From NCBI GenBank assembly GCA_041749335.1, contig JBGTBM010000010.1, positions 221,110 to 285,109 of the forward strand: 64,000 nt of DNA, written 5' to 3'. Shown in pieces: positions 25,386-59,765 of the stretch. Each line of letters starts with the position of its first letter. The stretch's first letter is position 1. The position numbers and the translations under genes are program-made. The notes beneath the pieces are model-generated. The model had not been told where the DNA came from and searched no databases. It saw only the letters and a list, made by a program, of their open reading frames with translations. The DNA is from Patescibacteria group bacterium. Its GTDB lineage: Bacteria > Patescibacteriota > JABMPQ01.

Positions 25386-25624
25386 ACTTTTAAGTTATTT
25401 TAAGTTAAATTTATTACTTTTTGATCTGGACGCTAGCTTTTTTCCATTCCGATTAAACTATTTTAACTATGATATTTTTTTATGTTTTTATTTTTAAGCA
25501 ATTCATATTAACAGACTATAGTAGCATACTTTAATTTTATTGTCAAGGGTTTTTGACAAAGATTGCTCCAATATAAAAAACACCCTTAATGATGGTGCTT
25601 TTATAGTATTTGCCAGAAATTATT

Positions 25625-26734: not shown

Positions 26735-26943
26735 ATGCTTCTTCTTAATATTAATTATGTATAAAAATCCAATTATATTAAATCATTCACTTCTCGTCCC
26801 GACGTTACGTCGGGATTATAGCAATACGCATAAAAAAATTTTGCCTTTTGCCTGGCAGCTAATATCTTTTATCTTTAGGCGTTTAGTTAATATTATCACA
26901 ATAAAAAAAGAGAGTAAATTTCCACTCTCTTTTTTCTTTATAA

Positions 26944-27573
26944 TTAAGCGGCCATATTTTTTATTTCGCGTAGAACTTCCATCTTTCTAGCTATGGTTTT
27001 TTCTTTTCTGACTGATTCTTCAATTTCTTTGCTTAAAACAATATAGCTATCGGTTAATTCATTAAATTTTTCTTCATCTTTAGCTGCCGCTGCCTCTTTT
27101 AATTGTTTTTTTAAATTATTTCTTTGCACTATTAATTCATTCATTTCAGTTATTTCAAGCAGAGTTTCCATCGCTTCTGAAATTTTTTCGTCTAAATCGC
27201 TCAAATCAATATCAAACTCTGACATTTCCGCCTCGGCTTTTGGCAAATTAATGCCAAGCTCGGCGGTGGTTTCCAAAGCAATATTGACATCATTTAATTC
27301 TTCTTCAAGCCGTGCTATTTCCAAATCTATTTGATTGTAATCCTCAATCATTTGCTTTAAATCATCCACATTCTGCTCTTGAGCAATAATCTCAGCTTTT
27401 AACTTTCGTTGCCTCTCCAAATCAGAAATTTGAGCGCTAGTTTCCACAATCTTATTGCGCAGCTCTTGAGCATATTCCGCCGGAGTTTCCTTTTTCTCGC
27501 CCTTTTCAGCCTTTTCCGGCACTTTACCGGTTAATTCTTCTTCTGAAATTGATAGACCTTCTGGATTCATCAT
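26944..27573 (-). CDS. acidic coiled-coil protein, function unknown
   Basis: 209 aa, about 30% Glu/Asp/Lys with heptad-like periodicity (LERQRKLKAEIIAQEQNVDDLKQMIEDYNQIDLEIARLEEEL). Confidence 0.45.
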   Translation of the reverse strand: MMNPEGLSISEEELTGKVPEKAEKGEKKETPAEYAQELRNKIVETSAQISDLERQRKLKAEIIAQEQNVDDLKQMIEDYNQIDLEIARLEEELNDVNIALETTAELGINLPKAEAEMSEFDIDLSDLDEKISEAMETLLEITEMNELIVQRNNLKKQLKEAAAAKDEEKFNELTDSYIVLSKEIEESVRKEKTIARKMEVLREIKNMAA

Positions 27574-27726
27574 ATATATTTATTATTTATTTATGCCTAT
27601 ATATTAACATATTTTATATTTAAAGTCAACGAAATATTATTGACATTATAATTTATTTATTATATACTATGATGATTTACTTGCAGTTTAAGTCTTAAAT
27701 ATTTATATTGAAAACGAAAATATTTT

Positions 27727-30700
27727 ATGAAAACACATTATCGTAAAGACAAATTTCGCTTTCCCCAATATTTTCTTAATAAAGAATTTCCAATTTTTAT
27801 TAAGGTTGTGGCAATTCTGATTATTTTGGCCATTATTCTTTTTATTATTGATACCATCGGATTAACCTATAAACCACAAATAGAAATTGATGCCTATACG
27901 GTTAAACACGATATTGATCCTAATTTATATGGATATAGTATCGATTCTAATTTTACTTATAACCAAAACCTAGTAGGCGCCATCAACCAATACGGCGCGC
28001 AATCTATGAGAATTATGGATGAATATGAGCCGGGAGCGCGTATGCTTTTAAAGATTAATAATGGAGCAAGCTATGTTTTAGCTGCCGACAATGTCCCCTA
28101 TGAGCCCAACCGCAATTACCAAGTTAAAATTCAGGTTAATGAAAGCAATATTAAGCTTTGGATAGACGGCAAACAAATTTTTAGTGTTAACGATTCAACC
28201 TACAAAAATGGTGAAATTGGCTTAACCTCAAGCTTTAATCTTAATTCTTATTTTGATAATGTTGTAGTTCGCAATAATGAGAGTAATATCCTTTTTTCTG
28301 ATAATTTTTCCCGCGGCTTCGATAAATGGGAAAACGGCAATATTCCCGGCTTTTATCAACAAGGCGACTGGCTGCTTGACGATGACAGCTTAAAACACGA
28401 AGGCCAGCAGTCTATTACGCTAAAAAAGGCCGGAGATAATAATTGGAGAAATTATACTATCACCGCCGACTTAAAATCGTCAACGCAAAATATTTATGAG
28501 GCTGGGTTTATTGGCATTGTGTTTCGTTATAATGGAATACTGAACAATTATAAATTTTTATGGCGCTCCGGCTTACGACAACCCTTCTCATCTAATAATC
28601 CTTGGGAAATTGCGGACTATGACGGCCAATTCCGCTTTCTCCAAGAAACAAATTTAAAGCCTAATATGGTCATTAATATGCGCGACGATTCCGTCCAATC
28701 AGCCGCTGATTTGGTGCACGAATTAAATATTGAAAAAAAATTAGGAATAAAATATTGGGAGCTCGGCAATGAAATATGGCTGTGGAGCGACTCTTACATC
28801 CACAACGACCAATATGCTCAAAAAGTAAAAAATTATTCCCGAGCCATGAAAGCGGTAGATCCCAGCATAAAAATCGGCGCCACTCTGCTTTTGGGATTTT
28901 CAGACTGGGATAATTTAGTAATTCGCGAAACTGCTCCTTATATTGATTTTATTGTTTTTCATTTTTATCCCTACTACGTTCAAAGCAATATTTCAGATTA
29001 TCATATATTGGGCGCTCCCTATGCGTTCGGCAATAATTTTAAGAATAATAATGGACAAGGCAAGGGTATTGTAGAAAATGCTAAAGATTTAATCAGGAAA
29101 GAGGCGCCAGGGCATGAAAACAGAATTGAATTTGCAGTAACTGAATATAACACCGGAGACTATGATCAAGGAATTGATCTTATTTACGGCTTGGCAGTCG
29201 CAGATCTTTTAGGCGAAGCGGCTAAGCAGGACATTAAACTTATGCAATTTCATAAGCTAGCCAACGAAACCGCCTGGCATTGGGGAGCTTTTACCGAAGA
29301 TTATCGAGCTAAACCGTCTGCGCTGGCGATCTCAATGTACACAAAACACTTCGGCGATAAAATGTTAGATGCCAAAGTAAAAAATACTCCCACCTTTTAC
29401 GTCCCAGAAAAAATTAATGTGCCGGCAATTTCTAATATACCGTACTTGTCGGTTCATGTTAGCCGCAGCAAAGATGATAAAAAATTATATTTGATGGTAA
29501 TTAATAAGCACGCGGCCGCCGATATGCAAACAACTATAAATATTGCCAACGCTAATATTTCCGCGCAGGCAAAAGCCTATACTTTAAACGGACCCTCCAT
29601 CCATTCCGATAATAATTATGCCGATAATGTAGCCATATCGGAGAAAACAATTAATAATGCCAATTCAAAATTTATCTATAATTTTCCGGCTCATTCCGTA
29701 ACCGCGATTGAATTTAATATTGAAAATTTAATTAAGCCCAAAGTACAAACAGCTATAACTGTCCCAAAAAGCGAAATTAAAAATACGCCCGCTACTCCTG
29801 ATATCGGAGGACCATCAGATAATTCTATTCAGACATCTAAAATTGCCGCTTCCGCCGGTTTGGGCGGAAATCCCCATATAAAAACTTTTGACTCTCTGGG
29901 TAATCAATCTCAAGGTAACTTTTTTGCCTATGATCAAAATTTTAAAGGCGGGGTTTCAATAGCTTTATGCGACTTTGAAGGCGATGGAAAAAATGAAGTG
30001 ATAACCGGCGCGGGAGCGGGCGGCGGGCCGCATCTCAGAGCTTTCCGCGAAGACGGAAGAGAAATCGCCAACTTCTTTCCCTTTGATCCGAATTTCCGCG
30101 GCGGTATTGATGTCGCTTGCGGCGATATAGATAAAGACGGGCGCGATGAAATCGTAACTTCTCAAAATTCCCAAGGCCAAGCCTGGATTAAGGTATATCG
30201 CTACGACACGCGAAAAAGTATCATTGGAGAATGGAATGCTTTTGGGCATGTGGAATGTGGCGCGTCTGTGGCAATGGGAGATGTAGACGGAGACGGCACA
30301 GATGAAGTGATTGTTGGAGCGGGAGCAGGAGGCGGGCCACATATTAGAATTTATGAAGCTGACGGCACTCTAAAGCCATTAGAGTTTTTTGCCTTTCATC
30401 CGAACTACCGCGGTGGTATTTCGGTTGCTGCCGGCGATGCGGATGGAGACGGCCAAGATGAAATTGGCGTATCTCAATCCGGTTATGGCGATCAATCCTG
30501 GACCAAGGTATACAAATACAATAACGAGCATTCGGTCTTAGGCGAATGGAAAGCTTACGGCGATGCGATCTTAAGCGCGCATATTGCCATGGGAGATATT
30601 GACGGCGATGGGCGCGCAGAAGTAGTTACTGGAACGGGCTTGGGCGGAGAACCGCTGGTGCTAACTTTTAATGCTTATGGACAAATTAAGCCGGTTAGTT

Positions 30701-30756
30701 TTTACGTATTTGATCGAGCCTTTGTTGGCGGAATTGAAGTAGATGTTAAAAAATAA
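27727..30756 (+). CDS. membrane-anchored surface protein: two ConA-like jelly-roll domains + clan GH-A glycoside hydrolase TIM barrel + FG-GAP/VCBS beta-propeller repeats
   Basis: 1009 aa; N-terminal TM FPIFIKVVAILIILAIILFIID; DUF1080/LamG-like blocks; catalytic-looking IKYWELGNEIW (acid/base NE) and FAVTEYNTGD (nucleophile E); five repeats of the type CDFEGDGKNEVITGAGAGGGPHLRAF and MGDVDGDGTDEVIVGAGAGGGPHIRIY. Confidence 0.7.
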   Translation: MKTHYRKDKFRFPQYFLNKEFPIFIKVVAILIILAIILFIIDTIGLTYKPQIEIDAYTVKHDIDPNLYGYSIDSNFTYNQNLVGAINQYGAQSMRIMDEYEPGARMLLKINNGASYVLAADNVPYEPNRNYQVKIQVNESNIKLWIDGKQIFSVNDSTYKNGEIGLTSSFNLNSYFDNVVVRNNESNILFSDNFSRGFDKWENGNIPGFYQQGDWLLDDDSLKHEGQQSITLKKAGDNNWRNYTITADLKSSTQNIYEAGFIGIVFRYNGILNNYKFLWRSGLRQPFSSNNPWEIADYDGQFRFLQETNLKPNMVINMRDDSVQSAADLVHELNIEKKLGIKYWELGNEIWLWSDSYIHNDQYAQKVKNYSRAMKAVDPSIKIGATLLLGFSDWDNLVIRETAPYIDFIVFHFYPYYVQSNISDYHILGAPYAFGNNFKNNNGQGKGIVENAKDLIRKEAPGHENRIEFAVTEYNTGDYDQGIDLIYGLAVADLLGEAAKQDIKLMQFHKLANETAWHWGAFTEDYRAKPSALAISMYTKHFGDKMLDAKVKNTPTFYVPEKINVPAISNIPYLSVHVSRSKDDKKLYLMVINKHAAADMQTTINIANANISAQAKAYTLNGPSIHSDNNYADNVAISEKTINNANSKFIYNFPAHSVTAIEFNIENLIKPKVQTAITVPKSEIKNTPATPDIGGPSDNSIQTSKIAASAGLGGNPHIKTFDSLGNQSQGNFFAYDQNFKGGVSIALCDFEGDGKNEVITGAGAGGGPHLRAFREDGREIANFFPFDPNFRGGIDVACGDIDKDGRDEIVTSQNSQGQAWIKVYRYDTRKSIIGEWNAFGHVECGASVAMGDVDGDGTDEVIVGAGAGGGPHIRIYEADGTLKPLEFFAFHPNYRGGISVAAGDADGDGQDEIGVSQSGYGDQSWTKVYKYNNEHSVLGEWKAYGDAILSAHIAMGDIDGDGRAEVVTGTGLGGEPLVLTFNAYGQIKPVSFYVFDRAFVGGIEVDVKK

Positions 30757-30816
30757 TTAAATCAATAAAAAACTCAGTTCTAAATATTTTGGACTGAGTT
30801 TTGTTTTACTGAAAAA

Positions 30817-32034
30817 TTAAATAAGCTTATTATATTCCGTAATTAACTTTGTGTAATACTGCTCGGAATCTAAATTAATTTCTGCAAATTGTTTGGCATT
30901 CTCTCCCATTTTTTGCGCCCGATCCGGCTCTTTGCCAATTTCAATGATTTTATTTTTTAAATCCCGCCAGTCGCCCGCCTTGAAAAGCATGCCCGTCTGA
31001 CCATGCTTCACCAATTCAGGTAGCGCGCCAATATCAGACGCAATTACTGTTTTGCCTTGAGCAAACGATTCGGCAATCGTTAAACCAAATGTCTCGTAAT
31101 TTCTTGAAGGCACCATGACATATTTTGCCCCCCTAATAGCTTTAGTCAAATTTTCACCGGCCAAATATCCAACAAACTCAATGTTATTCAAATTATTCTT
31201 TTTAACAAAATTTTTATAAATATTCTCGTGCGGACCGGTGCCGGCAATCATTAGCCTGTCATTTTTTAGATATTGATAGGCTTTTAATAAATCCATTAGT
31301 CCCTTTTCTTTTATCAATCTGCCGAAATATAAAGCATATTCGCCTGCTTGGCTTGATAAATTTTTTATACCCAAATTAACAAAATGCGGCAGTACAATTA
31401 TTTTTTTGCCGGGCCAGCCATATTCAACCAATTTGTTCCGAACAAACTCGCTGGGACAAATATATAAATCAATATTATTACGATAAATTTTGAGAAGCCG
31501 ATGTAAATACATTTCAACCATATTAACTTTGCTGGCTGCGTAAGAATTTTTGGCGCACCGATGCAGAACACAATTGTAAAACTTGTTCACCTTACATCTT
31601 TCACAGACTTCGCCTTCAGTAAAAAAACTATATACCGGGCATAAAAGCTTAAAATCATGCACTGACATTACTATCGGAATTTTTTTGTCTTTTAAAACCG
31701 TAAGGATTGAAGGGGAAATTTGATGATAAATATTATGAATATGAGCCAGATCGATTTTCTCGTCAGCCAATAAATTTTTTAATTTTCTTTGTGCTTCCCA
31801 CGAATATAAAATCCGTCCGGCCGCCTTGACATCCTGCCAAGAAAACCCGGCCTTCTCGATATTAATCGGACTGACAAAATATTTTTTATAGGGCGTAGGT
31901 TCATTTTTAATATCTTCCATAGCAAAAGGAATAACCCGAAGACCCCTTTTCACTAATAAATCACTAAGGTTAAAATAATACCTTTCCGCTCCCCCTTTTA
32001 GATAATAGAATTTATTTATTTGTAGAATATTCAT
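30817..32034 (-). CDS. glycosyltransferase family 4
   Basis: 405 aa; C-terminal SRNYETFGLTIAESFAQGKTVIASDIGALPELV GT4 motif. Confidence 0.8.
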   Translation of the reverse strand: MNILQINKFYYLKGGAERYYFNLSDLLVKRGLRVIPFAMEDIKNEPTPYKKYFVSPINIEKAGFSWQDVKAAGRILYSWEAQRKLKNLLADEKIDLAHIHNIYHQISPSILTVLKDKKIPIVMSVHDFKLLCPVYSFFTEGEVCERCKVNKFYNCVLHRCAKNSYAASKVNMVEMYLHRLLKIYRNNIDLYICPSEFVRNKLVEYGWPGKKIIVLPHFVNLGIKNLSSQAGEYALYFGRLIKEKGLMDLLKAYQYLKNDRLMIAGTGPHENIYKNFVKKNNLNNIEFVGYLAGENLTKAIRGAKYVMVPSRNYETFGLTIAESFAQGKTVIASDIGALPELVKHGQTGMLFKAGDWRDLKNKIIEIGKEPDRAQKMGENAKQFAEINLDSEQYYTKLITEYNKLI

Positions 32035-32078
32035 TTATGCTCTAATAAATAATTGTTAAACCCGATCACATTCTAAAT

Positions 32079-33005
32079 TTATATTTTTTTATTTACATTT
32101 ATTGCCTTTATTTCTTTCTTTGCTTTTATATATTCTCGCATGCTTATTTTATTTTCTTCTTTAAATATTGATAATATATAATTTTTTAGGATCAACAAGT
32201 TGGTACGCAGTAATATTAAAAATTTCAATATCGCTGCATTCATCATATATTTCTTGAAATAATACAGCAAGCTTTTTGCCTCGTTTACTACTGAACGAGA
32301 AAAATCGGATTTGGCGCTATGTCCATGATGATGGATTACCTCGGCCTTGGGATAATAAATAATTTTGAATCCGGCACGATTGGCTCTTTTGCAAAAATCC
32401 ACATCTTCCACATACATAAACATATTTTCGTCCAACATGCCGATGCTTTGCATTACCGCTTTTTTGATTAACATAAATCCACCCGACACCCAATCCACTA
32501 TTCGCGGATAAGAATATTTTTTCTGCTTTAATTTATGGCTGGGTATTATTTTGCCATAAGGAAAGATTTTGTATAAAAAAGTGCTAAACAATAATTCGGT
32601 CTTAAGCGTAGGATAATTTCCGAAGGATGGCTGCAGGCGATTATCCGGATAAACAAATTTGCAGCCTAAAATTCCAGCCTCATTATCCAAGTTCAAATAT
32701 TTTAAACTGTCGGTTATCGCGTCCCCGACTACCACCATGTCCGGATTCATTAAAAGAACAGCCTTGCCTTGGCTCATTTTTATTCCCCTATTTACCGCCT
32801 TGGCAAAACCCAAATTCTCTCCAGTTTCAACCAGCTTAACTTGGGGAAATTCATTTTTAATAACCGCAACCGTTTGATCTTGTGAATTATTGTCTAACAA
32901 AATTACTTCAAAATTTAAGCCTTGAGTGTTTTGATAAATAGAATTCAGGCAATTTTTGATTACTTTTTCTGACTGATAAGTAACAATTATTATCGATAAA
33001 TCCAT
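32079..33005 (-). CDS. glycosyltransferase family 2
   Basis: 308 aa; MDLSIIIVTYQSEKVIKNCLNSI ... LLDNNSQDQT ... NPDMVV (DxD) ... typical GT2 (GT-A) N-terminal half. Confidence 0.85.
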   Translation of the reverse strand: MDLSIIIVTYQSEKVIKNCLNSIYQNTQGLNFEVILLDNNSQDQTVAVIKNEFPQVKLVETGENLGFAKAVNRGIKMSQGKAVLLMNPDMVVVGDAITDSLKYLNLDNEAGILGCKFVYPDNRLQPSFGNYPTLKTELLFSTFLYKIFPYGKIIPSHKLKQKKYSYPRIVDWVSGGFMLIKKAVMQSIGMLDENMFMYVEDVDFCKRANRAGFKIIYYPKAEVIHHHGHSAKSDFSRSVVNEAKSLLYYFKKYMMNAAILKFLILLRTNLLILKNYILSIFKEENKISMREYIKAKKEIKAINVNKKI

Positions 33006-33006
33006 A

Positions 33007-34443
33007 TTATTTAATTTTTTTTATTTTATTCGTATCAATCAAATATCCTGATGAAATTACCACACCCAAAAATATCCAAAATAAAATTACAAAAAGGTTG
33101 ATATCGAAATACACTCCGAAATTCGCGCCGACAAAAAATAAAATATAACACGCAATAAATCCCAAAACAATCGGTCGCAATTCAGTAGCCTTTTTTAAAA
33201 TATTGATTGTTCTAGCGGCAAAAATTGTCTGGAAAGCGGCAAAGGAAATAAATCCCAATAATCCCATCTGTAAAGCTATTCCGATAAAATTATTATGTAA
33301 ATCCCGAATCTCTATGCGCGCGGGAAAGCCGAAATAATCAAATGTCAGCTTCCGGCCGAAACCGATTCCCAGCACCGGACTTTCCACAAATGTCTCCCAA
33401 GCTTCCTGCCAAGCCAAAAGCCTAAAGGCGGCGCTTTCATCTTCCAAAGATAATGTTAGTGATTGGACCCTGACAATAGTGGTTTTATAAAAATCACTGA
33501 CAAACTCCGGAAACTTTCCCGAAGATAAATAATCAAACCAAACATATAAAGACGCCAGCATAATTACCAAAAAAAGCTGAATCGCAACGATTTTAATTAA
33601 GCTTTTTTTATTCGTGCGTGAAAGCAGTAAAAAAGAAACAAAAACAGCTAGCGCCAAACCAATCCATAAATGCCTGGTTAAAGAACCGACTATGCCCACC
33701 AACATAATCAACACCACGGGAATAGTCATATTGCCAAATAATTTCTTGCCATGGGCAATAAAATTTAAAATTAATACTACCGCCACGCATAAATAAAACG
33801 CATGCGTTGGCGCCAAAAGCCTAGTACCAACTGTAGATAAGGGAGTATATTCAATCCACAAACCGGCGCCTCTAAATACTCCATAAAAAACGAAAAAGAA
33901 TAATGCCACGCCGCTGCCGATAAAAATATAAGTTAATCTTTTTATCTGCTCTTTGGTCCTAATAATATTAATTGTCAAAAAAAACATGATCGCGTAAATG
34001 CCATAGTTCTTTAAAGTACTAAAAGCTTCATTAAATTCTCCCCCGCCCGCTATTCCCAAACCAAAGGATACAACGCAAAATAAAGTAAAAATTATGATAG
34101 CAATCCCTGTGCGCGAAACTCTTAACTTTTCCCGATGAGATCTAATATAATGAATTAAATAGCTTAAAATCGTAACAATTATAATAATATCCAAGGGATA
34201 AAGTTTATACGTATTTTCCTGAAATACCAGCGGCAATAAAGTAAAAAACCTCTCAAAAATAATCGTGCATATTATTATTGTGTAAAGTCCGGATTCCGGT
34301 TTTTGAAATATATAGAAGGAGGCGAAAGCCAAGCAAAATGCATAAAAATAGATATTAAAAGGAATAAAAAAGGTTGATATGATAAAAATACCCAGGGAAA
34401 TTGATGCCACGATCGCGTAAATTACCTCTTTGGAGATCTTCAT
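33007..34443 (-). CDS. polytopic membrane protein, O-antigen ligase/polymerase-like (Wzy/WaaL family)
   Basis: 478 aa with about 10-12 predicted TM helices and a periplasmic loop; sits between GT genes in the glycan locus. Family assignment by context and topology only. Confidence 0.45.
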   Translation of the reverse strand: MKISKEVIYAIVASISLGIFIISTFFIPFNIYFYAFCLAFASFYIFQKPESGLYTIIICTIIFERFFTLLPLVFQENTYKLYPLDIIIIVTILSYLIHYIRSHREKLRVSRTGIAIIIFTLFCVVSFGLGIAGGGEFNEAFSTLKNYGIYAIMFFLTINIIRTKEQIKRLTYIFIGSGVALFFFVFYGVFRGAGLWIEYTPLSTVGTRLLAPTHAFYLCVAVVLILNFIAHGKKLFGNMTIPVVLIMLVGIVGSLTRHLWIGLALAVFVSFLLLSRTNKKSLIKIVAIQLFLVIMLASLYVWFDYLSSGKFPEFVSDFYKTTIVRVQSLTLSLEDESAAFRLLAWQEAWETFVESPVLGIGFGRKLTFDYFGFPARIEIRDLHNNFIGIALQMGLLGFISFAAFQTIFAARTINILKKATELRPIVLGFIACYILFFVGANFGVYFDINLFVILFWIFLGVVISSGYLIDTNKIKKIK

Positions 34444-41809: not shown

Positions 41810-42604
41810 CTATTTGATTTTATAAACCGCGTCAATCTTAACCGATACCTCTTCTTGTCCGCTGGGAATTTCGGGAATTATTTCTGCTTCACCCGACAAC
41901 TCCGCCTTATCCATAGCAGCGTAAAACGGACCGGGAATATTCACTTCAGATTCGGTGATGCTAATTACCTCTCCCAGTTCGCTGCCAGAGGCCGTCACCA
42001 AAGCCACCGCTCTCTCCTGCGCATTCTGATAAGCCAAATCCAGCGCGTCTTTTTTAAATTTTTCCATATTTTCTACCGTAAAGCCTACTCCTTGAATATT
42101 ATTTGCCCCGGCTTCGGCTGCCTTGGTAAGCACCCGGCCGACGTTTTGCAAATCGCGAATAATAACATTTATATTTTGATCCGTGCGATAGCCGATTACT
42201 TTTGATCTACCCTCGCTATAATCATATTCCGGACCGATTTGGTAATTCGTCGTCTGCAAATCTTCATCTTTTATATTTTGATTTTTTAACGCTTCAACAA
42301 TTTTATTGATTTTGGCTGAATTTTCGTCTTGGGATTTTTCGGTAGTTTCCGCGATGGTATAAGCGCCGATCGTCACTGTCGCAATATCCGGAGTAATTTT
42401 TATTTTGCCTTCCCCGCTGACGCTGACTTTCTTTTCTTTCTCCACTTCCACAATGTCCGGCTGAATCAACTCAATTCTAAAAGGCTTTAGTATCAACATG
42501 GCTGAAACCGTAACCAAAGCCGCTCCAATCACACTCAACAAAAAAATAATAATAACAGTTGCAAACACCCTTTTTTTAGGTTTGATGTTGGTTTTTTCTT
42601 CCAT
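41810..42604 (-). CDS. SIMPL-domain (DUF541, YggE-like) protein with N-terminal TM anchor
   Basis: 264 aa; VSGEGKIKITPDIATVTIGAYTIAETTEKSQDENSAKINKIVEALK...GYRTDQNINVIIRDL typical SIMPL blocks. Confidence 0.7.
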   Translation of the reverse strand: MEEKTNIKPKKRVFATVIIIFLLSVIGAALVTVSAMLILKPFRIELIQPDIVEVEKEKKVSVSGEGKIKITPDIATVTIGAYTIAETTEKSQDENSAKINKIVEALKNQNIKDEDLQTTNYQIGPEYDYSEGRSKVIGYRTDQNINVIIRDLQNVGRVLTKAAEAGANNIQGVGFTVENMEKFKKDALDLAYQNAQERAVALVTASGSELGEVISITESEVNIPGPFYAAMDKAELSGEAEIIPEIPSGQEEVSVKIDAVYKIK

Positions 42605-42619
42605 ATTATTTTAAATTAT

Positions 42620-43048
42620 TTATTTACCGGTAGATCCGAATGAGCCGGCGCCTCTGGCCGTTTTATCTAAATCGTCCACCTCTTCAATTCCCGCATTCAC
42701 AACCGGCTGGATTAAAATTTGCGCGATTTTATCGCCCTTTTTAACATTATAGCTATTTTTTGAAGTATTAAGAAGCACTATTTTATATTCACCGCGATAG
42801 CCGGCGTCTATTACCCCGCCCATAGTTTTGATGCCATAATTAGCCGCCAATCCGGATTTGTCCCAGATTAATGCCGCATAGCCCTCCGGCAATGAGATTG
42901 ATATCCCTGTTTTAAAAAGATAGCGCTCTCCCGAAGCCAAATTTTTTTCTTCCAATGAAAAAACATCAAGACCGGCATCCCCCGGATGAGCATAGGAGGG
43001 AATTATTGCGTCTTGATGTATTTTTTTAATTTTGATTTTTACTGTCAT
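42620..43048 (-). CDS. dut: dUTP diphosphatase
   Basis: 142 aa; AHPGDAGLDV; GGVIDAGYRGE; C-terminal glycine-rich motif. Confidence 0.9.
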   Translation of the reverse strand: MTVKIKIKKIHQDAIIPSYAHPGDAGLDVFSLEEKNLASGERYLFKTGISISLPEGYAALIWDKSGLAANYGIKTMGGVIDAGYRGEYKIVLLNTSKNSYNVKKGDKIAQILIQPVVNAGIEEVDDLDKTARGAGSFGSTGK

Positions 43049-43169
43049 AAAGCATCTAGTGAGAATAATTATCCACCAATAATTTCAACCGATCGTGATA
43101 ATTTAATTTTCCGTCATCATCTTTAGGTTACAGGTTACATACTGCCTGTTATCTGATCGCCCGTTCGCC

Positions 43170-43847
43170 TTATTTAATTTTAATTCCCGGCCCCATAGAA
43201 GTGCAAACGGTTATTCCTTTGATAAATTCCCCTTTGGTTTTATTGGGTTTTAATTTTTTTAGAGCATCCATTAAAGCATTAAAATTTTCTACCAATTGTT
43301 CATCGGTGTAAGATTTTTTGCCGATAGTTTGATGAATTATCCCCGCCGGATCATTTTTAAAATTAATTTTTCCCGATTGCAACTCATTTATTGCCTTAAC
43401 CGGATCGGGAGTGACAGTGCCGACTTTGGGATTTGGCATTAATCCTTTTGGTCCTAATATTCTAGCAACTTTACTTAAATGCCTCATCATTTCAGGAGTT
43501 GCGATGGCAACATCGAAATCGCATTTTTTGGTTTTATCAATCTCTTCCACCAAATCTTCCGCGCCCACTATTTCCGCACCGGCTTGTTTAGCTTTGGCTT
43601 GAATATCAGCTGGCGCAAAGACTGCGATTTTAACTTTTTTTCCGCTGCCATGTGGCAATACGGCAGAACCTTTAACGTTTTGATCAGATTTTGATACATC
43701 TATGCCCAACTTAATATGCGCTTCAACTGACGCATCAAATTTTTCAAACGATACTTCTTTCACCTTTTTCATGGCTTCCTCTACACCAAAAGATTCGTTG
43801 CCTACTTTTTTTTCCGCTTCTGTAAATTTTTTACTCTTTTTCTTCAT
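43170..43847 (-). CDS. rplA: 50S ribosomal protein L1
   Basis: 225 aa; canonical L1 sequence (FDASVEAHIKLGIDVSKSDQNVKG...). Confidence 0.95.
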   Translation of the reverse strand: MKKKSKKFTEAEKKVGNESFGVEEAMKKVKEVSFEKFDASVEAHIKLGIDVSKSDQNVKGSAVLPHGSGKKVKIAVFAPADIQAKAKQAGAEIVGAEDLVEEIDKTKKCDFDVAIATPEMMRHLSKVARILGPKGLMPNPKVGTVTPDPVKAINELQSGKINFKNDPAGIIHQTIGKKSYTDEQLVENFNALMDALKKLKPNKTKGEFIKGITVCTSMGPGIKIK

Positions 43848-43897
43848 TTTTTTTCCTGTGGTTTTAACGCTTATTGACTAAATAAGCTCCCACTTAA

Positions 43898-44458
43898 TTA
43901 TTTTTTATTCCAATTTAATATTATGGTAGATATTATCTGTGTCAGCAATAGAATTACTCCGATTGCCAAGCTTATTTGTATAAAAATCGTTATCCGGTTA
44001 AATAAAGCTCCAATGGTTAATAAATGGACATTATGCGGAAGCCATTTAATATTCTTCATGCCCTTAAGTTCAATATAATAGCTGGTTAAATGCAGCATAG
44101 CTTCAAGAAAAAGCGCGGCAATGGCAATTTCAAAGGATATTAACGAACTGAAAGCCAGTGCGACCAGCCATGACATTCTCAAGCGATCCGAAACAAAATC
44201 GTAAAATGATCCCAGCTTGGTTTCCTCTTGATACTTACGCGCTAATTTTCCATCAAAAAAATCAAAGGTCCAATCCAAACCGGCCGCCATCCCTCCCCAT
44301 AAAAGCTCGCCTTTCCAAAAAAAATAAAAGGCCACAATAGTTGATAACAAAGAAAGTAATGTGAGCCTATTTCCATTTAGCCCGATTTTGTGCAAAATTT
44401 TGAGAAAACCATCCGGAATAATCTTATCTGAAAATTTTTTATGTTCCGCCACCAACAT
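43898..44458 (-). CDS. CDP-alcohol phosphatidyltransferase family membrane protein
   Basis: 186 aa; exact family motif D-x2-DG-x2-AR-x8-G-x3-D-x3-D in FDFFDGKLARKYQEETKLGSFYDFVSD. Confidence 0.7.
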   Translation of the reverse strand: MLVAEHKKFSDKIIPDGFLKILHKIGLNGNRLTLLSLLSTIVAFYFFWKGELLWGGMAAGLDWTFDFFDGKLARKYQEETKLGSFYDFVSDRLRMSWLVALAFSSLISFEIAIAALFLEAMLHLTSYYIELKGMKNIKWLPHNVHLLTIGALFNRITIFIQISLAIGVILLLTQIISTIILNWNKK

Positions 44459-44511
44459 TTAATTTATTAGAAATAATTAGCGAATATTAAAATTATTAAA
44501 TCTCTTTTTGC

Positions 44512-44937
44512 CTAGCCCTCAACTGTTATACCCATGCTTCTAGCGGTTCCGGCAACAATTTTCATTGCAGCTTCAATATCGTTGGCATTGAGATCCTGCA
44601 TTTTTTTCTCGGCAATTTCTTTAATCTGCGCCCGTGTTACTTTGCCGACTTTTTCTTTATGCGGAATTCCTGATCCCTTTTTAATACCGGCGGCTTTTTT
44701 CAGCAGTTCGGCGGCCGGCGGAGTTTTTAAAACAAAATCAAAGGTTCGATCTTCATAAATGGTAATCTCGGCCGGAATCACATCTCCACCCATGTCTTTG
44801 GTTTTATCATTAAAAGACGTACAAAATTCTTGAATATTTAATCCATGTTGGCCCAAAGCCGGTCCGATCGGTGGAGCCGGAGTGGCTTTTCCTGCAGGAA
44901 TTTGTAATTTTACTACTGTTTTTACTTCTTTTGCCAT
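44512..44937 (-). CDS. rplK: 50S ribosomal protein L11
   Basis: 141 aa; [25 protein letters not shown]... canonical L11. Confidence 0.95.
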
Positions 44938-44971
44938 ATATTTTCTTAATTACTAATAAATTATTTTATTT

Positions 44972-45511
44972 CTACCAACGATTATCTTGAACTTTCAAAT
45001 AATATCCCAAATGATTCATCACAATATGCAATAATGGAAATCCTACAAGTATGGTAAGCATGACCTGTCCGGATGGTACATAAATTATTGAAACAAATAA
45101 TATGAAACCGATTATAAAATCAATCTGATCCCAGGGAATAAATCTATCACCGGGATTGACGCCTAACTGCCTTTTAATCAGGCTCTTAATGGCATCTCCG
45201 AACAGCACGCCAAATCCCATCAAAAATCCTACCAATACCGCATTGTGCTCATCAAAAGGGAACAAAGTTATTTCCCTAAAAAATTCATACCGAAGATAAA
45301 GCGCCTTTTGCAAAAGAGCAATAAGTATTGCGACCAATATCCCAAAAAAGAAGCCGCGAAATGTTTTATGGCTGCCGAATATCGGCTTGCCATTAATCGT
45401 TTTACCAAAGTCTATGGGATAATTTAAAAAATTAATTTTTTTAAAGATTACCGGCGCCATATTGGCTATGCCCCCCGGTAGAAAAAACCAAAAGGCTTTT
45501 AATAAAAACAT
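44972..45511 (-). CDS. small polytopic membrane protein, CarS/CdsA-like CTP:lipid cytidylyltransferase family (tentative)
   Basis: 179 aa, about 5 TM helices; N-terminal LPGGIANMAPV and C-terminal GDAIKSLIKRQLGVNPGDRFIPWDQIDF resemble the K(R/K)xxG...DQxD signature of CDP-archaeol synthase (DUF46) and CdsA-type cytidylyltransferases. Recalled from memory, not verified. Confidence 0.4.
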   Translation of the reverse strand: MFLLKAFWFFLPGGIANMAPVIFKKINFLNYPIDFGKTINGKPIFGSHKTFRGFFFGILVAILIALLQKALYLRYEFFREITLFPFDEHNAVLVGFLMGFGVLFGDAIKSLIKRQLGVNPGDRFIPWDQIDFIIGFILFVSIIYVPSGQVMLTILVGFPLLHIVMNHLGYYLKVQDNRW

Positions 45512-45520
45512 GGTATGGAA

Positions 45521-46066
45521 TTAAAGTTTCTTAATTTGCAAAAAGTCTAACTCTACCGGCGTTTCACGCCCAAACATATTTACCAATACTTTAATTTTTC
45601 CTTTTTCTTCATCTATGGAACTAACTTTGCCGTCAAAATCTTTAAAGGGGCCATCAATAATTTTAACCGATTCGCCTACCGCCACATCAATCTTATATTT
45701 CGGCTCTTCCACGCCCATTCTTTTTTGTAATCCGCTAATTTCTTCGCTGGAAACCGGAGTGGGAATAGTGCCGGAACCGACGAACCCGGTTACATTGGGA
45801 GTATTTCTTACCACATACCACGATTCATCCGTCACAATCATTTCCACCAAGACATAGCCCGGATAAATCTTTTCCTCCACCGTTTGCCGCTTGCCGTTTT
45901 TGATCTTGATCTTTTTTTCTTTAGGCACAATTATATTAAAAATCATATCTTCCATTCCCATAGTCTCAATGCGCTGCTTCAAATTTTCCGAAACATTTTC
46001 TTCATAACCGGAATAGGTATGTAAAACATACCAGGCTCTTTCTTTTGTTCCTACTTGCTTTGGCAT
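45521..46066 (-). CDS. nusG: transcription termination/antitermination factor NusG
   Basis: 181 aa; WYVLHTYSGYEENV NGN domain; C-terminal KOW (GESVKIIDGPFKDFDGKV). Confidence 0.9.
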   Translation of the reverse strand: MPKQVGTKERAWYVLHTYSGYEENVSENLKQRIETMGMEDMIFNIIVPKEKKIKIKNGKRQTVEEKIYPGYVLVEMIVTDESWYVVRNTPNVTGFVGSGTIPTPVSSEEISGLQKRMGVEEPKYKIDVAVGESVKIIDGPFKDFDGKVSSIDEEKGKIKVLVNMFGRETPVELDFLQIKKL

Positions 46067-46126
46067 ATTATTAGTTAAATTTCAAAATTGTTTTTTAAAA
46101 AATTGAAAATTAATTATTTATAAAAA

Positions 46127-46324
46127 TTATACTATCAATTCAAGTACCCAATTAAAGACAAAGTCAAAAACTCCCAAAAATGCAGCGACCGCCAAACTCA
46201 CGGCAACAACAATCAGGGTGTGCCTAAAAAGTTCCGCACGCGTCGGCCACACAACTTTGCCCAGCTCTATCCTGGCTTCTTTAATATAATTTACTACTTT
46301 ATTGTCAGTGATGCTGAATCCCAT
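46127..46324 (-). CDS. secE: preprotein translocase subunit SecE
   Basis: 65 aa; E(L)xKVxWP motif (ELGKVVWPTRAEL) plus a single TM helix; conserved position upstream of nusG. Confidence 0.7.
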   Translation of the reverse strand: MGFSITDNKVVNYIKEARIELGKVVWPTRAELFRHTLIVVAVSLAVAAFLGVFDFVFNWVLELIV

Positions 46325-46698
46325 AATTTTTTATATTTAAAAACAGTGGTCGGGCCACTATTTAGCCCTATTTTACTAAAACATTATAACATGTCAAGAG
46401 AAAAATGAATATTGAATTTGGAATAATATATTTTGGATTGTGAATAAAGAAAATTTTGGAATGACAAAATGAATGAAATGAATTTCGTTATCGTTATTAA
46501 AGATACAAGTAGCAAGAAACAAATAAACTTCAATTATCAATAACCATTTTATAAAATTTTTAGTAATTATTAATTGATTATTGTATCTTAAACATTTATG
46601 GGATTGCTTCGTCCCGACATAGCGTCGGGGCTCGCAATTACTGGTTTTTTATCTGATTCGTGATCTAATTCGTGTTCAATTTGTGATAAAATCATAAC

Positions 46699-48780
46699 TT
46701 AGATATCAAGATTTTTGACATCTTTGGCTCGGCTTTGAATAAACCGGCGGCGCGGTTCCACTTCCGCTCCCATTAGAGTATCAAAAGTTTTATCAGCCTT
46801 TTGCGCTTCTTCTATCTTCACTTGCAGCATAACTCGATTTTCCGGATTCATGGTGGTTTCCCAAAGCTGCGCCGGATTCATTTCTCCCAAACCCTTATAC
46901 CTTTGAATATTTATTTTTGCTCCGCTCTTTACTTCTTTCTTAAATGTTTCCATAATCTCGTTTTTATCCTCTTCGGTGTAGGCATATTGCATCTCTTTGC
47001 CTACTTTAATGCTATACAAAGGCGGTTGAGCGATATATAAATGACCGTCTTCCACCAGCTTTTCAAAATAACGGAAAAATAATGTTAAAAGCAAAGTGCG
47101 GATATGCGCTCCATCAACGTCGGCATCGGTCATAATTATTACGCGATTATAGCGCAGTTTTGTAAGATCCATTTCCTCTCCCACTCCCATGCCCAGAGCG
47201 ATAATCAAAGACTTTATTTCTTTGGAAGATAAAACTTTGTCCAAACGAGCTCTTTCAATATTTAAAATTTTGCCGCGTAAAGGGAATATCGCTTGAAAAC
47301 CACGGTCGCGTCCGCCCTTGGCAGAACCGCCGGCCGAATCTCCCTCCACAATAAAGATCTCGCATTTTTCCGCTTCCTTGGATGAACAATCTGCCAATTT
47401 TCCCGGCAAAGTAAGGCCATCCAGCGCACCCTTTCTGATGACTGTTTCTTTTGCGGCCTTCGCAGCCTTTCTCGCTTTTTGGGCCAGCAGCGTTTTTCCA
47501 ATCATTTGGCGAGCGTCCTGGGGATGTTCCTCCAGAAATTCCGTAAAAGCATCATGCATCAAAGATTGCACTACTGTTCGAACTTCGGCGTTGCCTAATT
47601 TGGCTTTGGTTTGGCCTTCAAATTGTGGATTTCTTAATTTGATGGAAATAATAACCGTTAAACCTTCCCGCACATCGTCTCCGGTCAGATTTTCTTCCTT
47701 GCCCTTAATGTAATCATTTTTACGAGCATAATCATTGATTACACGCGTTAAGGCCGATTTAAATCCCATTAAATGTGTTCCGCCTTCCGGAGTATAAATA
47801 TTATTAGCAAAACTTATCTCAAATCCTTTTATTTCATCGGTATATTGCATCGCGATTTCAACCATAATATCATCCGCTTCCCGCTCCATATAAAAAGGCG
47901 TTTCATGGATAAGATTTTCACCATCATTCAAATGTTTAAGATATGAAACAATTCCTCCGTCAAAATAAAAAGTGAGAATTCTGGGAAATTTTCCCGGCTT
48001 GTCTTCAATTTCTCTTTCATCAATTACTTTTACTCTGACATTTTTGGTTAAATAAGCCTGCTGCCTAATATGGTCGATTATTTTTTTCCAGGAAAATTCA
48101 ATTTTATCAAAAATTTCAGGATCAGGCTCAAAAGTAATAGTTGTGCCTGTTTCCTGCGATCTTTCCCCTTTCTTTACTTTGGTTTTGGGTTTTCCTTTAG
48201 CATATTCCTGCTCAAATTCATAGCCATCTCTTTTCACTTCCGCTTTTAAATAAGAAGATAAAGCGTTAACCACCGAAACACCGACGCCATGTAAGCCGCC
48301 GGCTACCTTATAGCCTACCCCATCAAATTTACCACCGGCGTGTAAAGTCGTAAGGACTGTTTCCAACGCCGATTTTTTCGTTACGCTATGCTTTTCCACC
48401 GGAATACCACGTCCATTATCGCTTACAGTCACGCTGCTATCTTTATGAATAATCACTTCAATATTATTGCAATATCCGGCCATTGCTTCATCGATGGAAT
48501 TATCAACCACTTCCCAGATCAGGTGATGCAGGCCGTCCAAACTGGTACCCCCGATATACATTCCCGGTCTTTTTCTAACCGGATCCAAACCTTCCAGTAC
48601 TGTGATATCTTTGGCAGTATAGGAACCTTCAACTCTGGTGGTCTGTTTTAAGGATAAATTACCCCCGGCTACTATTTTTTTGCCAGCAGCGGGTTTTTTC
48701 CCGGAAGTGTTAATTTTTTTTGCATTTTTGGTATTCTTTTTAGGATTTTCTTTCTTTTTGGAGTTTTTCTTCTTTGGCAT
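46699..48780 (-). CDS. gyrB: DNA gyrase subunit B with about 48-aa lysine-rich N-terminal extension
   Basis: 693 aa; conserved start of the GHKL domain YTAKDITVLEGLDPVRKRPGMYIGGT is preceded by MPKKKNSKKKENPKKNTKNAKKINTSGKKPAAGKK...; Toprim and C-terminal tail present. Confidence 0.95.
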   Translation of the reverse strand: MPKKKNSKKKENPKKNTKNAKKINTSGKKPAAGKKIVAGGNLSLKQTTRVEGSYTAKDITVLEGLDPVRKRPGMYIGGTSLDGLHHLIWEVVDNSIDEAMAGYCNNIEVIIHKDSSVTVSDNGRGIPVEKHSVTKKSALETVLTTLHAGGKFDGVGYKVAGGLHGVGVSVVNALSSYLKAEVKRDGYEFEQEYAKGKPKTKVKKGERSQETGTTITFEPDPEIFDKIEFSWKKIIDHIRQQAYLTKNVRVKVIDEREIEDKPGKFPRILTFYFDGGIVSYLKHLNDGENLIHETPFYMEREADDIMVEIAMQYTDEIKGFEISFANNIYTPEGGTHLMGFKSALTRVINDYARKNDYIKGKEENLTGDDVREGLTVIISIKLRNPQFEGQTKAKLGNAEVRTVVQSLMHDAFTEFLEEHPQDARQMIGKTLLAQKARKAAKAAKETVIRKGALDGLTLPGKLADCSSKEAEKCEIFIVEGDSAGGSAKGGRDRGFQAIFPLRGKILNIERARLDKVLSSKEIKSLIIALGMGVGEEMDLTKLRYNRVIIMTDADVDGAHIRTLLLTLFFRYFEKLVEDGHLYIAQPPLYSIKVGKEMQYAYTEEDKNEIMETFKKEVKSGAKINIQRYKGLGEMNPAQLWETTMNPENRVMLQVKIEEAQKADKTFDTLMGAEVEPRRRFIQSRAKDVKNLDI

Positions 48781-48972
48781 GGTATTTTTAGCTTATTTAA
48801 GGTAAATAATTACAAATATTCGGTATTTGCATATGGTAAAAATATACCATAATCACAATATTATATCAACAATAAAAAAGTGAATTTTACTTGACGGTTT
48901 ATATTAATTCTGTTAATATATTAAATTCTAAATATAGAATGATCTTTAAAAAAGAATGTGAAGGAGAAGCTC

Positions 48973-49911
48973 ATGGAAAAGGCAAGATTGATACTGGTAA
49001 CACACAAGAAACCTGACCTAGATGCAGTCGCATCTCTCTTTTTGTGGCTGATGGCGCATCGGATTCCGTGGGACAGCGGCGAGGATATTTACAAAATGAA
49101 GTTCGTCAATCCGGGTCAAAGGTTAGAGGTTCCCCCCGAAGGAGAAAATATTCGGATTATCCACTTTGATACCGGAAGAATGCATGATGATTACAACTAT
49201 GATCACCATCAGCTAGGGTCGCGTGCGATCTCCGCTACCGGCCTGGTCTGGCAGCGATTCTTCAAACCGGGTGAAAATCCGGCGATCGACGAAATGGTCG
49301 CCGTTATCAATCATTCCGATAACGGTCTTAGATATCATACCGAAGATTTGGGAGCGAGAAATTTATTCGCCTTTGGCTTTATTCTCAGCGGAATTAATAA
49401 GTTTGATCCCCGCGGATCAGACTTCAGCCATACCATGATTACGGGTTTTAGCATGTTGGACGGCTATTTGGCTAACTGCGAAGAAGTGCAAGTCCTCAAT
49501 AATATTACTAACAATATGCCGATTTTCCAAACTTCACTGGGGCAAACCATCGCCCTAGACAATGTGCCGGGGGATTCCTCGGCTATCCGCAGCTATTTGA
49601 AAAAATATTACAACGGCACAAGGGGGCCCTTGGTCAATACCTGCGTGGTAAAATTCTCGGAAGGGTCAATCGGAGTAATTGTCTGCATTGATCCCGGAGA
49701 GGAACAGGATCTTAACGAAGATGCAGGCAATGACAATTACCCCGAAGCAATTTCATTATTTGGAGAAATGAAACGCATTTATAATGAGTTAAAGGATTTG
49801 GATTCCAGTCAAGGCAGTAACATTTACCTTCATTATTCCGGCTTCGCTCTTTACATAAACCGTTCGCAAAAAATAGCCTTGGCGGATGTGCTAAGGCTAA
49901 TCGCAATATAA
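48973..49911 (+). CDS. DHH-superfamily phosphoesterase-like protein (GC-rich, probably horizontally acquired)
   Basis: DHH motifs: LVTHKKPDLDAVAS (I), IHFDTG (II), YDHH (III). Start chosen at ATG 48973 after SD AAGGAG (48961-48966); the track ORF begins at GTG 48958. Local GC about 45-60% versus about 34% for the window. Confidence 0.5.
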   Translation: MEKARLILVTHKKPDLDAVASLFLWLMAHRIPWDSGEDIYKMKFVNPGQRLEVPPEGENIRIIHFDTGRMHDDYNYDHHQLGSRAISATGLVWQRFFKPGENPAIDEMVAVINHSDNGLRYHTEDLGARNLFAFGFILSGINKFDPRGSDFSHTMITGFSMLDGYLANCEEVQVLNNITNNMPIFQTSLGQTIALDNVPGDSSAIRSYLKKYYNGTRGPLVNTCVVKFSEGSIGVIVCIDPGEEQDLNEDAGNDNYPEAISLFGEMKRIYNELKDLDSSQGSNIYLHYSGFALYINRSQKIALADVLRLIAI

Positions 49912-59168: not shown

Positions 59169-59245
59169 CGCGGGGTGGAGCAGTCTGGCAGCTCGTGAGG
59201 CTCATAACCTCAAGGTCGCTGGTTCAAATCCAGCCCCCGCAACCA
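59169..59245 (+). tRNA. tRNA-Met (CAT), initiator type (C1:A72 mismatch), CCA encoded
   Basis: cgcggggtggagcag...ggctCATaacc...ggttcaaatccagcccccgcaacca; acceptor 5' CGCGGGG pairs with CCCCGCA except at position 1/72. Confidence 0.8.
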
Positions 59246-59480
59246 TTTGACTTAAAATTCCAAGAGACAAGCACCAAATTCCAAACTATTTTTTCAAGCA
59301 AAATTTCTTGCTTTGCCGCATCTCCGTTTGGTTATTGATATTTGTAGATTGGAATTTGTTTGTAATTTATTTGATAAAATAATTATTCAAGACAGCGCCC
59401 TGTTAGAAGTATCTGTAATTAATATAAGGAAGATAATAAATTGTTAGATAGGGGCTTTTGATTATTAATACTTCTAACTG

Positions 59481-59554
59481 GGCAGGGTAGCTCACCTGGT
59501 TAGAGCGCGAGACTCATAAGCTCGAGGTAGTGGGTTCGAGTCCCACCCCTGCTA
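59481..59554 (+). tRNA. tRNA with CAT anticodon (elongator Met or lysidine-modified Ile2), CCA not encoded
   Basis: ggcagggtagctcacctggttagagcgcgagactCATaagctcgaggtagtgggttcgagtcccacccctgcta; cloverleaf with one G-U pair in the acceptor stem. Confidence 0.7.
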
Positions 59555-59669
59555 TATATTTTCTCAATAAATTTCAAACGCTAAATTTTGTTCGATGCTT
59601 TTTAAAATTATTTCCGCATTTTAATTTAATAATTGCTATTTGTTGGTTGTTAATTTGATTATTTATTTT

Positions 59670-59743
59670 GGGCTCGTAGCTTAGCGGTTTAAAGCGCCTG
59701 CCTGTCACGCAGGAGATCGCCGGTTCAAATCCGGTCGGGCCCG
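59670..59743 (+). tRNA. tRNA-Asp (GTC), CCA not encoded
   Basis: gggctcgtagcttagcggtttaaagcgcctgcctGTCacgcaggagatcgccggttcaaatccggtcgggcccg. Confidence 0.8.
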
Positions 59744-59765
59744 TTTTTTATTATTTTTAAATTAA

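Follow-up and report, generated by a model that had tools for sequence, protein, structure and literature searches.

Two families of membrane cytidylyltransferases stand ahead of the CDP-alcohol transferases in lipid head-group synthesis. CarS, the CDP-archaeol synthase, is represented by the Aeropyrum pernix structure 5GUF, the Archaeoglobus fulgidus enzyme, and the models PF01864 and NF003114. Bacterial CdsA is represented by PF01148, PRK11624, and the Thermotoga maritima structure, PDB 4Q2E (cited in the review PMC9385802). Among the CDP-alcohol transferases, archaetidylinositol phosphate synthase (AIPS) and phosphatidylinositol phosphate synthase (PIPS) make up an inositol-phosphate-transferring branch (NF040950, NF045883; PDB 6H53, 5D92, 6WM5). 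In this study, we describe a 64,000-nt stretch, hereafter the window, from a Patescibacteria group bacterium (assembly GCA_041749335.1, contig JBGTBM010000010.1, positions 221,110 to 285,109), in which a CarS-like gene and a CDP-alcohol phosphatidyltransferase gene are interleaved with secE, nusG, rplK, and rplA. The pair is predicted to form a conserved, minimal two-enzyme head-group module of DPANN archaeal type in one clade of Parcubacteria, part of the candidate phyla radiation (CPR).

Neither CPR bacteria nor DPANN archaea are thought to synthesise lipids; both are believed to rely on those of their hosts. Among bacteria, genomes of Cloacimonadota and the Fibrobacteres-Chlorobi-Bacteroidetes (FCB) group encode homologues of archaeal enzymes for membrane lipids; these genomes, whose bearers are proposed to make archaeal lipids, contain geranylgeranylglyceryl phosphate synthase (GGGPS) and digeranylgeranylglyceryl phosphate synthase (DGGGPS) and lack CarS (Villanueva et al., 2020, PMC7852524). 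The window resembles these genomes in carrying such a homologue and differs from them in which one it carries: a CarS-like gene is present, whereas GGGPS and DGGGPS were not seen in the 64 kb. In our literature search, no published description was found of CPR CarS homologues, of their DPANN affinity, of their link to PlsC-type acyltransferases, or of this operon variant. CarS is not treated in Coleman et al. (2019), and "archaeol" in the Kuroda and Minisyncoccus papers belongs to species names. Both protein families are known; the host, the subfamily, and the operon context are unusual.

Results

Two membrane-enzyme genes are interleaved with secE, nusG, rplK and rplA

All six genes lie on the minus strand. 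In the open reading frame (ORF) listing, secE (46127..46324, 65 aa) is followed by nusG (45521..46066, 181 aa), the CarS-like gene (44972..45511, 179 aa), rplK (44512..44937, 141 aa), the transferase gene (43898..44458, 186 aa), and rplA (43170..43847, 225 aa), with successive gaps of 60, 9, 34, 53, and 50 nt. The four housekeeping proteins were identified with Pfam and NCBIfam, and all exceed bacterial equivalog cut-offs: SecE (PF00584, E 6.7e-19; TIGR00964, 62 bits against a cut-off of 27.55), NusG (TIGR00922, 213.7 against 135.7), L11 (TIGR01632, 207 against 141.85), and L1 (TIGR01169, 283 against 216.3). The initial annotation, made from the sequence without database searches, had named the same genes and placed the lipid genes in among the conserved ones. 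Each assignment is borne out by the profile searches, and the coordinates and order are exact. The locus is a real, lineage-specific operon variant built from known enzyme families.

The host is a Parcubacteria-type CPR bacterium. The window encodes the bacterial housekeeping proteins FtsW/RodA, DnaE, ThrRS, class I ribonucleotide reductase with NrdR, ScpAB, PheST, GyrB, SbcCD, MiaA/MiaB, and GatB. The named relatives of its GyrB belong to the Parcubacteria/Patescibacteria group, Spechtbacterales, and Portnoybacteria. Several GyrB homologues from related CPR genomes (P0146, P0156, and P0213), with lengths of 1109-1210 aa, contain an intein domain (PF14890).

The 179-aa protein is a full-length member of the CarS family

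The CarS-like protein matched PF01864 over its full length (E 1.1e-29, 104.1 bits, cut-off 22), with residues 3-179 aligned to positions 5-175 of the 175-position model. It was aligned end to end with A. pernix CarS (5GUF; phmmer E 8.4e-9), and both contain the motifs G-x2-K-T-x2-G, G-D-x3-S-x2-K-R, and D-Q-x-D. Residues K49, T50, G105, D106, S110, K113, R114, D128, Q129, and D131 are invariant across 34 CarS-like homologues. Five transmembrane helices are predicted, and the AlphaFold2 (AF2) model (pLDDT 92.5) has five long helices. When this model was searched against the PDB with Foldseek, 5GUF was the sole match at E<=0.001 (E 7.5e-6, TM-scores 0.67/0.75). PGAP names a 49%-identical relative "CDP-archaeol synthase [Patescibacteria group bacterium]". 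In length (about 180 aa), helix number, motifs, and predicted fold, the protein agrees with CarS. It differs from A. pernix CarS in being only 25% identical to it, in its CPR host, and in belonging to a DPANN/CPR subfamily whose genes often lie near PlsC-type acyltransferase genes.

The match to bacterial CdsA is partial. PF01148 covered only residues 48-119 (26.8 bits), the C-terminal signature region that the two families share, and PRK11624 gave 14.7 bits, where its equivalog cut-off is 385. In sequence and fold searches of the PDB, no structure of CdsA was among the matches of the protein. Judged from models of 264-285 positions, CdsA is about 100 residues longer. The likeness to CdsA lies in the predicted reaction class and in the pathway position before the CDP-alcohol transferases.

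The transferase is a divergent relative of AIPS and PIPS

The transferase matched PF01066 (E 8.4e-15, 55.9 bits, gathering cut-off 22). Its catalytic motif, D66-x2-D69-G70-x2-A73-R74-x8-G83-x3-D87-x3-D91, is complete, as had first been read from the sequence. The motif is invariant in clade relatives and also in 60 distant relatives, among which R74 is nearly so. The subfamily is tiny: of 1.84 billion cluster representatives searched with a profile, 5 reached E<=1e-30 and 49 reached E<=1e-10. All 60 of the nearest representatives scanned matched the AIPS and PIPS models, more than matched other families, with best E-values of 7.8e-56 (AIPS) and 1.1e-43 (PIPS). For the window protein, AIPS and PIPS are likewise the top-scoring named families, with an alignment that spans the N-terminal two thirds only. 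The bifunctional IPCT/DIPPS model is among its weaker NCBIfam matches and is also matched by 52 of the 60 relatives. On this ranking, and on its neighbours in sequence space, the protein is classified as a divergent member of the AIPS/PIPS branch, which it also resembles in its complete motif and length of about 190 aa. It differs from the equivalogs of that branch in its scores, given below, and in the size of its subfamily.

The interleaved order is conserved in one clade

The same interleaved order was found in at least nine independent assemblies from Logan, NCBI, and JGI (loci L001, L003/L004, L086/L087, L090-L093, L095, L096, and L098, of which L090-L093 are partial JGI contigs). Across these loci, identity to the window ranges from 88 to 67% for GyrB, 77 to 46% for CarS, and 80 to 36% for the transferase. 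Values for GyrB, CarS, and transferase, respectively, are 88, 77, and 80% in L086; 88, 68, and 67% in L001; 75, 52, and 53% in L095 (GCA_043826745.1); 73, 48, and 44% in L096; 68, 49, and 36% in L003 (GCA_028699085.1); and 67, 51, and 40% in L098 (JGI). A mis-assembly or mis-binned archaeal DNA was considered and ruled out by the bacterial flanking genes and by the recurrence of the order in many independent assemblies.

Outside this group, the arrangement changes. The outgroup locus L097 (Spechtbacterales, GyrB 64%) has the block pheT-gyrB-secE-nusG-rplK-...-dut-tmk-thyA-folA-gatB, with flanks common to the window, and has neither lipid gene and no rplA at the corresponding site. In this region of L097 (4707-5719), a dCMP deaminase gene comes after rplK, and rplA is missing from the locus; hence, adjacency of rplK and rplA does not hold throughout this part of the CPR. 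In L077, the order is gyrB-CarS-secE-nusG-rplK-rplA, with the CarS-like gene 5' of secE and no transferase gene nearby. The gyrB match of L077 (2302-4956) is broken by a gap of about 600 nt. Taken together, these comparisons indicate that the interleaving is derived and has been stably kept within a single clade.

Relatives outside the clade are mostly from DPANN archaea

The closest CarS-like proteins outside the clade are 50-56% identical and bear Woesearchaeota, Nanoarchaeota, or Pacearchaeota annotations; other CPR groups contribute a minority, namely Kerfeld-, Magasanik-, and Komeilibacteria, Parcubacteria, and Patescibacteria. Locus L002, from a Nanoarchaeota single-cell genome, is unambiguously archaeal, with Psd-PssA-CarS beside PCNA, TFIIS, and Hef. 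The nearest non-clade relative of the transferase (71 bits) is in a Woesearchaeota metagenome-assembled genome, L033.

Among 80 GTDB loci with a CarS-like gene, a motif scan found a CDP-alcohol transferase ORF inside the fetched flanks of 58, and in 18 the transferase lies directly 5' of the CarS-like gene on the same strand. The order at a Magasanikbacteria locus is MnmA-CDPOH-CarS-AlaRS. By this census, the CarS-like and CDP-alcohol transferase genes appear as a recurrent cassette, and the initial reading of the pair as two consecutive steps of CDP-lipid synthesis is supported. PlsC-type acyltransferase genes were found within 5 kb of the CarS-like gene in 19 of the 80 loci: 17 DPANN loci, the Kerfeldbacteria locus L010, and the Patescibacteria locus L084. 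In L010 (5544-7460), two PlsC paralogues identified with Pfam come right after the CarS-like gene, and a third was found by tblastn. In the Woesearchaeota locus L047 (3416-3973), a Pfam-confirmed PlsC gene is in a cluster with a tandem CDP-alcohol transferase and a PAP2 phosphatase. Because PlsC neighbours recur, the DPANN/CPR subfamily may serve ester lipids and do the job of CdsA; for Woesearchaeota-type archaea, the gene neighbourhoods suggest that ester lipids are the ones served by this "CDP-archaeol synthase" subfamily.

That the nearest non-clade relatives of both genes are in DPANN archaea points to a probable inter-domain transfer of a DPANN/CPR-type module. In a neighbour-joining tree of 86 CarS-like sequences (100 bootstraps), the deep branches were unresolved, with monophyly of the ribosomal-cluster clade in 8 of 100 replicates and of all bacterial sequences in 0 of 100. 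Since the deep branches lack support, we claim a DPANN affinity and neither a direction nor a number of transfers.

Promoter-like sites and a predicted L1-binding RNA accompany the cluster

A promoter consensus scan covered 42500-49000. The best match on the minus strand was upstream of secE (46370..46397), with TTGACA, a 16-nt spacer, and TAAAAT (11 of 12 consensus positions). A weaker promoter-like site (44981-45010, 9 of 12 positions) is inside the 3' end of the CarS-like gene and could drive rplK separately. No terminator-like site was found on the minus strand from secE to rplA in a sequence scan. With a shared strand and gaps of 9-60 nt, co-transcription from secE to rplA, which the initial annotation had taken to follow from the gene order, is plausible. 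The lipid genes would then probably be transcribed with secE-nusG-rplK-rplA from the promoter-like site upstream of secE.

A predicted L1-interacting RNA of 36 nt (43858..43893, minus strand) ends 10 nt 5' of the rplA AUG. It consists of GUGGGAG, a hairpin, and then CGUUAAAACCAC. The element was spotted by eye and with a pattern search, and its prediction was based on conservation and folding. It is kept 5' of rplA in every related locus and also in L077, where rplK and rplA are adjacent; nine loci besides the window have it. Copies were located at L001 7623-7658, L086 8107-8143, L090 686-723, L091 2894-2929, L095 10721-10759, L096 11647-11683, L098 13188-13235, and L077 6844-6873. Minimum free energy folds are concordant: an outer helix of 4 bp leads through an asymmetric loop to the inner hairpin. 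In the RNAalifold consensus, all 4 outer pairs are invariant, and compensatory changes occur in 3 of the 6 inner pairs. No Rfam model matched the element; an Rfam search of the whole window at gathering thresholds, and of 43000-46700 at E<=10, returned no ribosomal leader or other credible RNA except three tRNAs. In L086 and L087, the gene caller had merged the element into an over-long, GTG-started rplA. We take the element to resemble the L1 stalk of 23S rRNA, as in E. coli. In several phyla, an L1-interacting RNA is located between rplK and rplA and precedes rplA; this class comprises Cyanobacteria, Actinobacteria, and Chloroflexi (Fu et al., 2013, PMC3616713). The position and structure of the element, with its short helix and asymmetric internal loop, fit the "precedes rplA" class.

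Compared with the E. coli-type secE-nusG and rplKAJL arrangement, the window shares the order secE-nusG-rplK-rplA and a predicted L1-binding mimic of the 23S L1 stalk. It differs in the two interleaved membrane-enzyme genes, in a predicted L1 operator before rplA instead of rplK, and in the genes that come next, which are dut, a SIMPL-family gene, thyA, folA, and tmk in place of rplJ, rplL, and rpoBC. Apart from the SIMPL-family gene between dut and thyA, these form a thymidylate (dTMP)-synthesis block (42620-40410, minus strand), which is retained with variable content down to the Spechtbacterales outgroup. The transferase gene would have been inserted between rplK and the L1 operator, leaving rplA with its own translational control. 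As the predicted L1-binding RNA sits directly 5' of rplA, the insertion would break no rplK-rplA translational coupling, and the split of the two genes would be tolerated.

Discussion

From these comparisons, we infer that the two ORFs make up a phospholipid head-group module with two steps, carried by one Parcubacteria clade. In the first step, the CarS-type enzyme would activate a lipid phosphate of the membrane (phosphatidic or archaetidic acid) with CTP to give a CDP-lipid. In the second, the AIPS/PIPS-branch transferase would shift the lipid phosphate onto an alcohol acceptor with release of CMP. The likeliest acceptor may be myo-inositol-1-phosphate or a similar polyol phosphate. A fatty-acyl (ester) lipid or a scavenged host lipid is held to be the likelier tail. 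With an acyl tail, the CarS-like enzyme would substitute for CdsA in a genome-reduced cell, and it may be promiscuous. We give a probability of roughly 55% to an enzymatic two-step module that works on an acyl or scavenged lipid tail. Archaeal-type lipid chemistry, at which the initial annotation had hinted, is possible and not favoured: CarS family membership stands in its support, the PlsC neighbours weaken it, and a polyprenyl synthase in sister lineages keeps an isoprenoid reading alive.

Several observations weigh against a module for acyl or scavenged lipids. Purified A. fulgidus CarS favours digeranylgeranylglyceryl phosphate over phosphatidic acid and failed to rescue a cdsA mutant of E. 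coli (review PMC9385802); a CdsA-like role is therefore not the default of this family. The CarS-like protein scored 130.3 bits with NF003114, under the equivalog cut-off of 148. For the transferase, the top NCBIfam scores were 55.4 bits with AIPS (cut-off 180) and 46.6 bits with PIPS (cut-off 170), and its AF2 model, built from a 7-sequence alignment, was poor (pLDDT 63.7) and was left out of the fold search. Because the scores are far under every equivalog cut-off and the model is poor, the acceptor is a guess. In the window clade, rplK splits the two genes, and their order is reversed relative to the usual cassette, so the pair may not have been inserted as a single cassette. PlsC, CdsA, GGGPS, and inositol-phosphate synthase were not seen in the 64-kb window; polyprenyl synthase and PlsC were absent by tblastn, a six-frame motif scan of the whole window found no second CDP-alcohol transferase or CdsA/CarS signature, and no lipid gene beyond the pair was found there. 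Two neighbourhoods favour isoprenoid lipids. The L033 relative of the transferase adjoins a UbiA prenyltransferase gene, and sister loci have a polyprenyl synthase gene between the CarS-like gene and rplK (L096 9519-10565, L091 543-1586, and L092 655-1698; PF00348), so that three lipid-related genes are interleaved with ribosomal genes. The sister-locus protein is 348 aa long (PF00348 E 1.8e-63), and its best PDB match is 1WY0, the geranylgeranyl diphosphate (GGPP) synthase of Pyrococcus horikoshii.

A module that makes or remodels archaeal-type isoprenoid lipids, with CDP-archaeol and then archaetidylinositol phosphate as products and a lipid either self-made or scavenged from an archaeal host, is the most serious enzymatic alternative and in our judgement an unlikely one. 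It would account for a true CarS-family member whose only structural match is A. pernix CarS, for the DPANN origin of the closest non-clade homologues, and for AIPS as the top model of the transferase. The polyprenyl synthase of sister loci, with its archaeal best match, and the UbiA neighbour in L033 point the same way. Characterised CarS enzymes discriminate against phosphatidic acid (PMC9385802), one Parcubacteria genome has reported GGGPS and DGGGPS homologues (PMC7852524), and some Parcubacteria parasitise methanogens (PMC10936435). The window itself has none of GGGPS, DGGGPS, glycerol-1-phosphate dehydrogenase, or polyprenyl synthase, and the acyltransferase genes found repeatedly near the DPANN/CPR subfamily argue for ester lipids. 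The polyprenyl synthase could instead supply farnesyl diphosphate or GGPP for the undecaprenyl carrier of peptidoglycan, and the window encodes FtsW/RodA. PIPS, which acts on bacterial lipids, scores nearly as high as AIPS. Less probable again, and a long shot, is that the clade has hard-wired a DPANN-derived CarS and an AIPS-like transferase, with a GGPP-synthase-like enzyme in its sisters, into the secE-nusG-rplK-rplA operon to build or re-head-group archaeal-type isoprenoid phospholipids that are possibly scavenged from archaeal hosts.

The cytidylyltransferase superfamily (PF01148) also includes CTP-dependent dolichol and phytol kinases, and the CarS-like protein might be a polyprenol or lipid kinase of that sort, paired with a transferase that, like DIPP synthase, uses a soluble CDP-alcohol donor. 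The polyprenyl synthase next door in sister loci and the IPCT/DIPPS matches, among the weaker ones for the transferase and seen in most of its scanned relatives, would suit such a pair. We consider it very improbable. The match is to CarS itself, over the full length and with CarS motifs and fold. In many DPANN and CPR genomes, a CDP-alcohol transferase gene adjoins the CarS-like one, as would be expected of consecutive steps, and PssA and Psd beside the CarS-like gene in L002 represent the classical phospholipid pathway.

The placement among ribosomal genes is a separate matter. It may have no functional meaning, with the site a tolerant one, the lipid genes neutral passengers, and co-transcription incidental; this view addresses what the placement means and nothing else, and it can stand alongside the two-step module on acyl or scavenged lipids. 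Relatives carry other insertions at the same junctions, so the region tolerates insertions, which supports a partly neutral reading. In addition to the polyprenyl synthase in L096, L091, and L092, L098 has two ORFs between gyrB and secE, L077 has its CarS-like gene 5' of secE, and in L086, ORFs resembling 23S_rRNA_IVP/bAvd separate the CarS-like gene from rplK and also occur after rplA. These are small four-helix-bundle genes (L086 6621-6956, 8895-9248, and 10681-11073; also in L087 and L088); they occupy three intergenic junctions of the cluster in this closest relative, which marks it as a hotspot for insertions. The lipid genes evolve much faster than their neighbours, and because rplA keeps a predicted operator of its own, their presence would disrupt nothing. 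The order is kept down to 36% transferase and 67% GyrB identity, and three different lipid-related genes, with no other metabolic ones, gather near secE, which suggests more than chance. A placement without functional meaning is in our judgement doubtful, and somewhat less so than the isoprenoid alternative.

The pair appears to occupy the role expected of CdsA and PgsA, inside a gene cluster that is among the most conserved in bacteria. If the enzymes act on acyl lipids, the locus would be a case of non-orthologous replacement, with genes shared across domains by two groups of ultra-small symbionts. If they act on isoprenoid lipids, bacterial membranes would cross the "lipid divide", and the making of lipid head groups would be tied to that of ribosomes. 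The gene pair is small and clonable, and it bears on whether bacterial phosphatidic acid can be a substrate of CarS-type enzymes, whether scavenged lipids are re-activated in CPR cells, and whether any CPR lineage has archaeal-type lipids.

Other features of the window

In a glycosyltransferase cluster (24213-34443), the gene for a 1009-aa FG-GAP-repeat protein (27727-30756) is surrounded by three genes of GT4, one of GT2, and a Wzy_C O-antigen-ligase-like gene. Local GC content reaches about 0.38-0.41 in the 28-32 kb bins, compared with about 0.35 to both sides. Between about 4 and 14 kb, GC skew is positive, with negative skew before and after, and the second switch coincides with a change of gene strand at about 13.7 kb. 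In this region, a 425-aa protein (8032-9309) has a GGDEF match that spans only 36 residues, a 380-aa protein (10728-11870) has a weak, sub-threshold Baseplate_J-like match, and several ORFs neighbouring the two have no family match. Three tRNA genes, two for tRNA-Met (CAT anticodon) and one for tRNA-Asp, are located at 59169-59744 on the plus strand.

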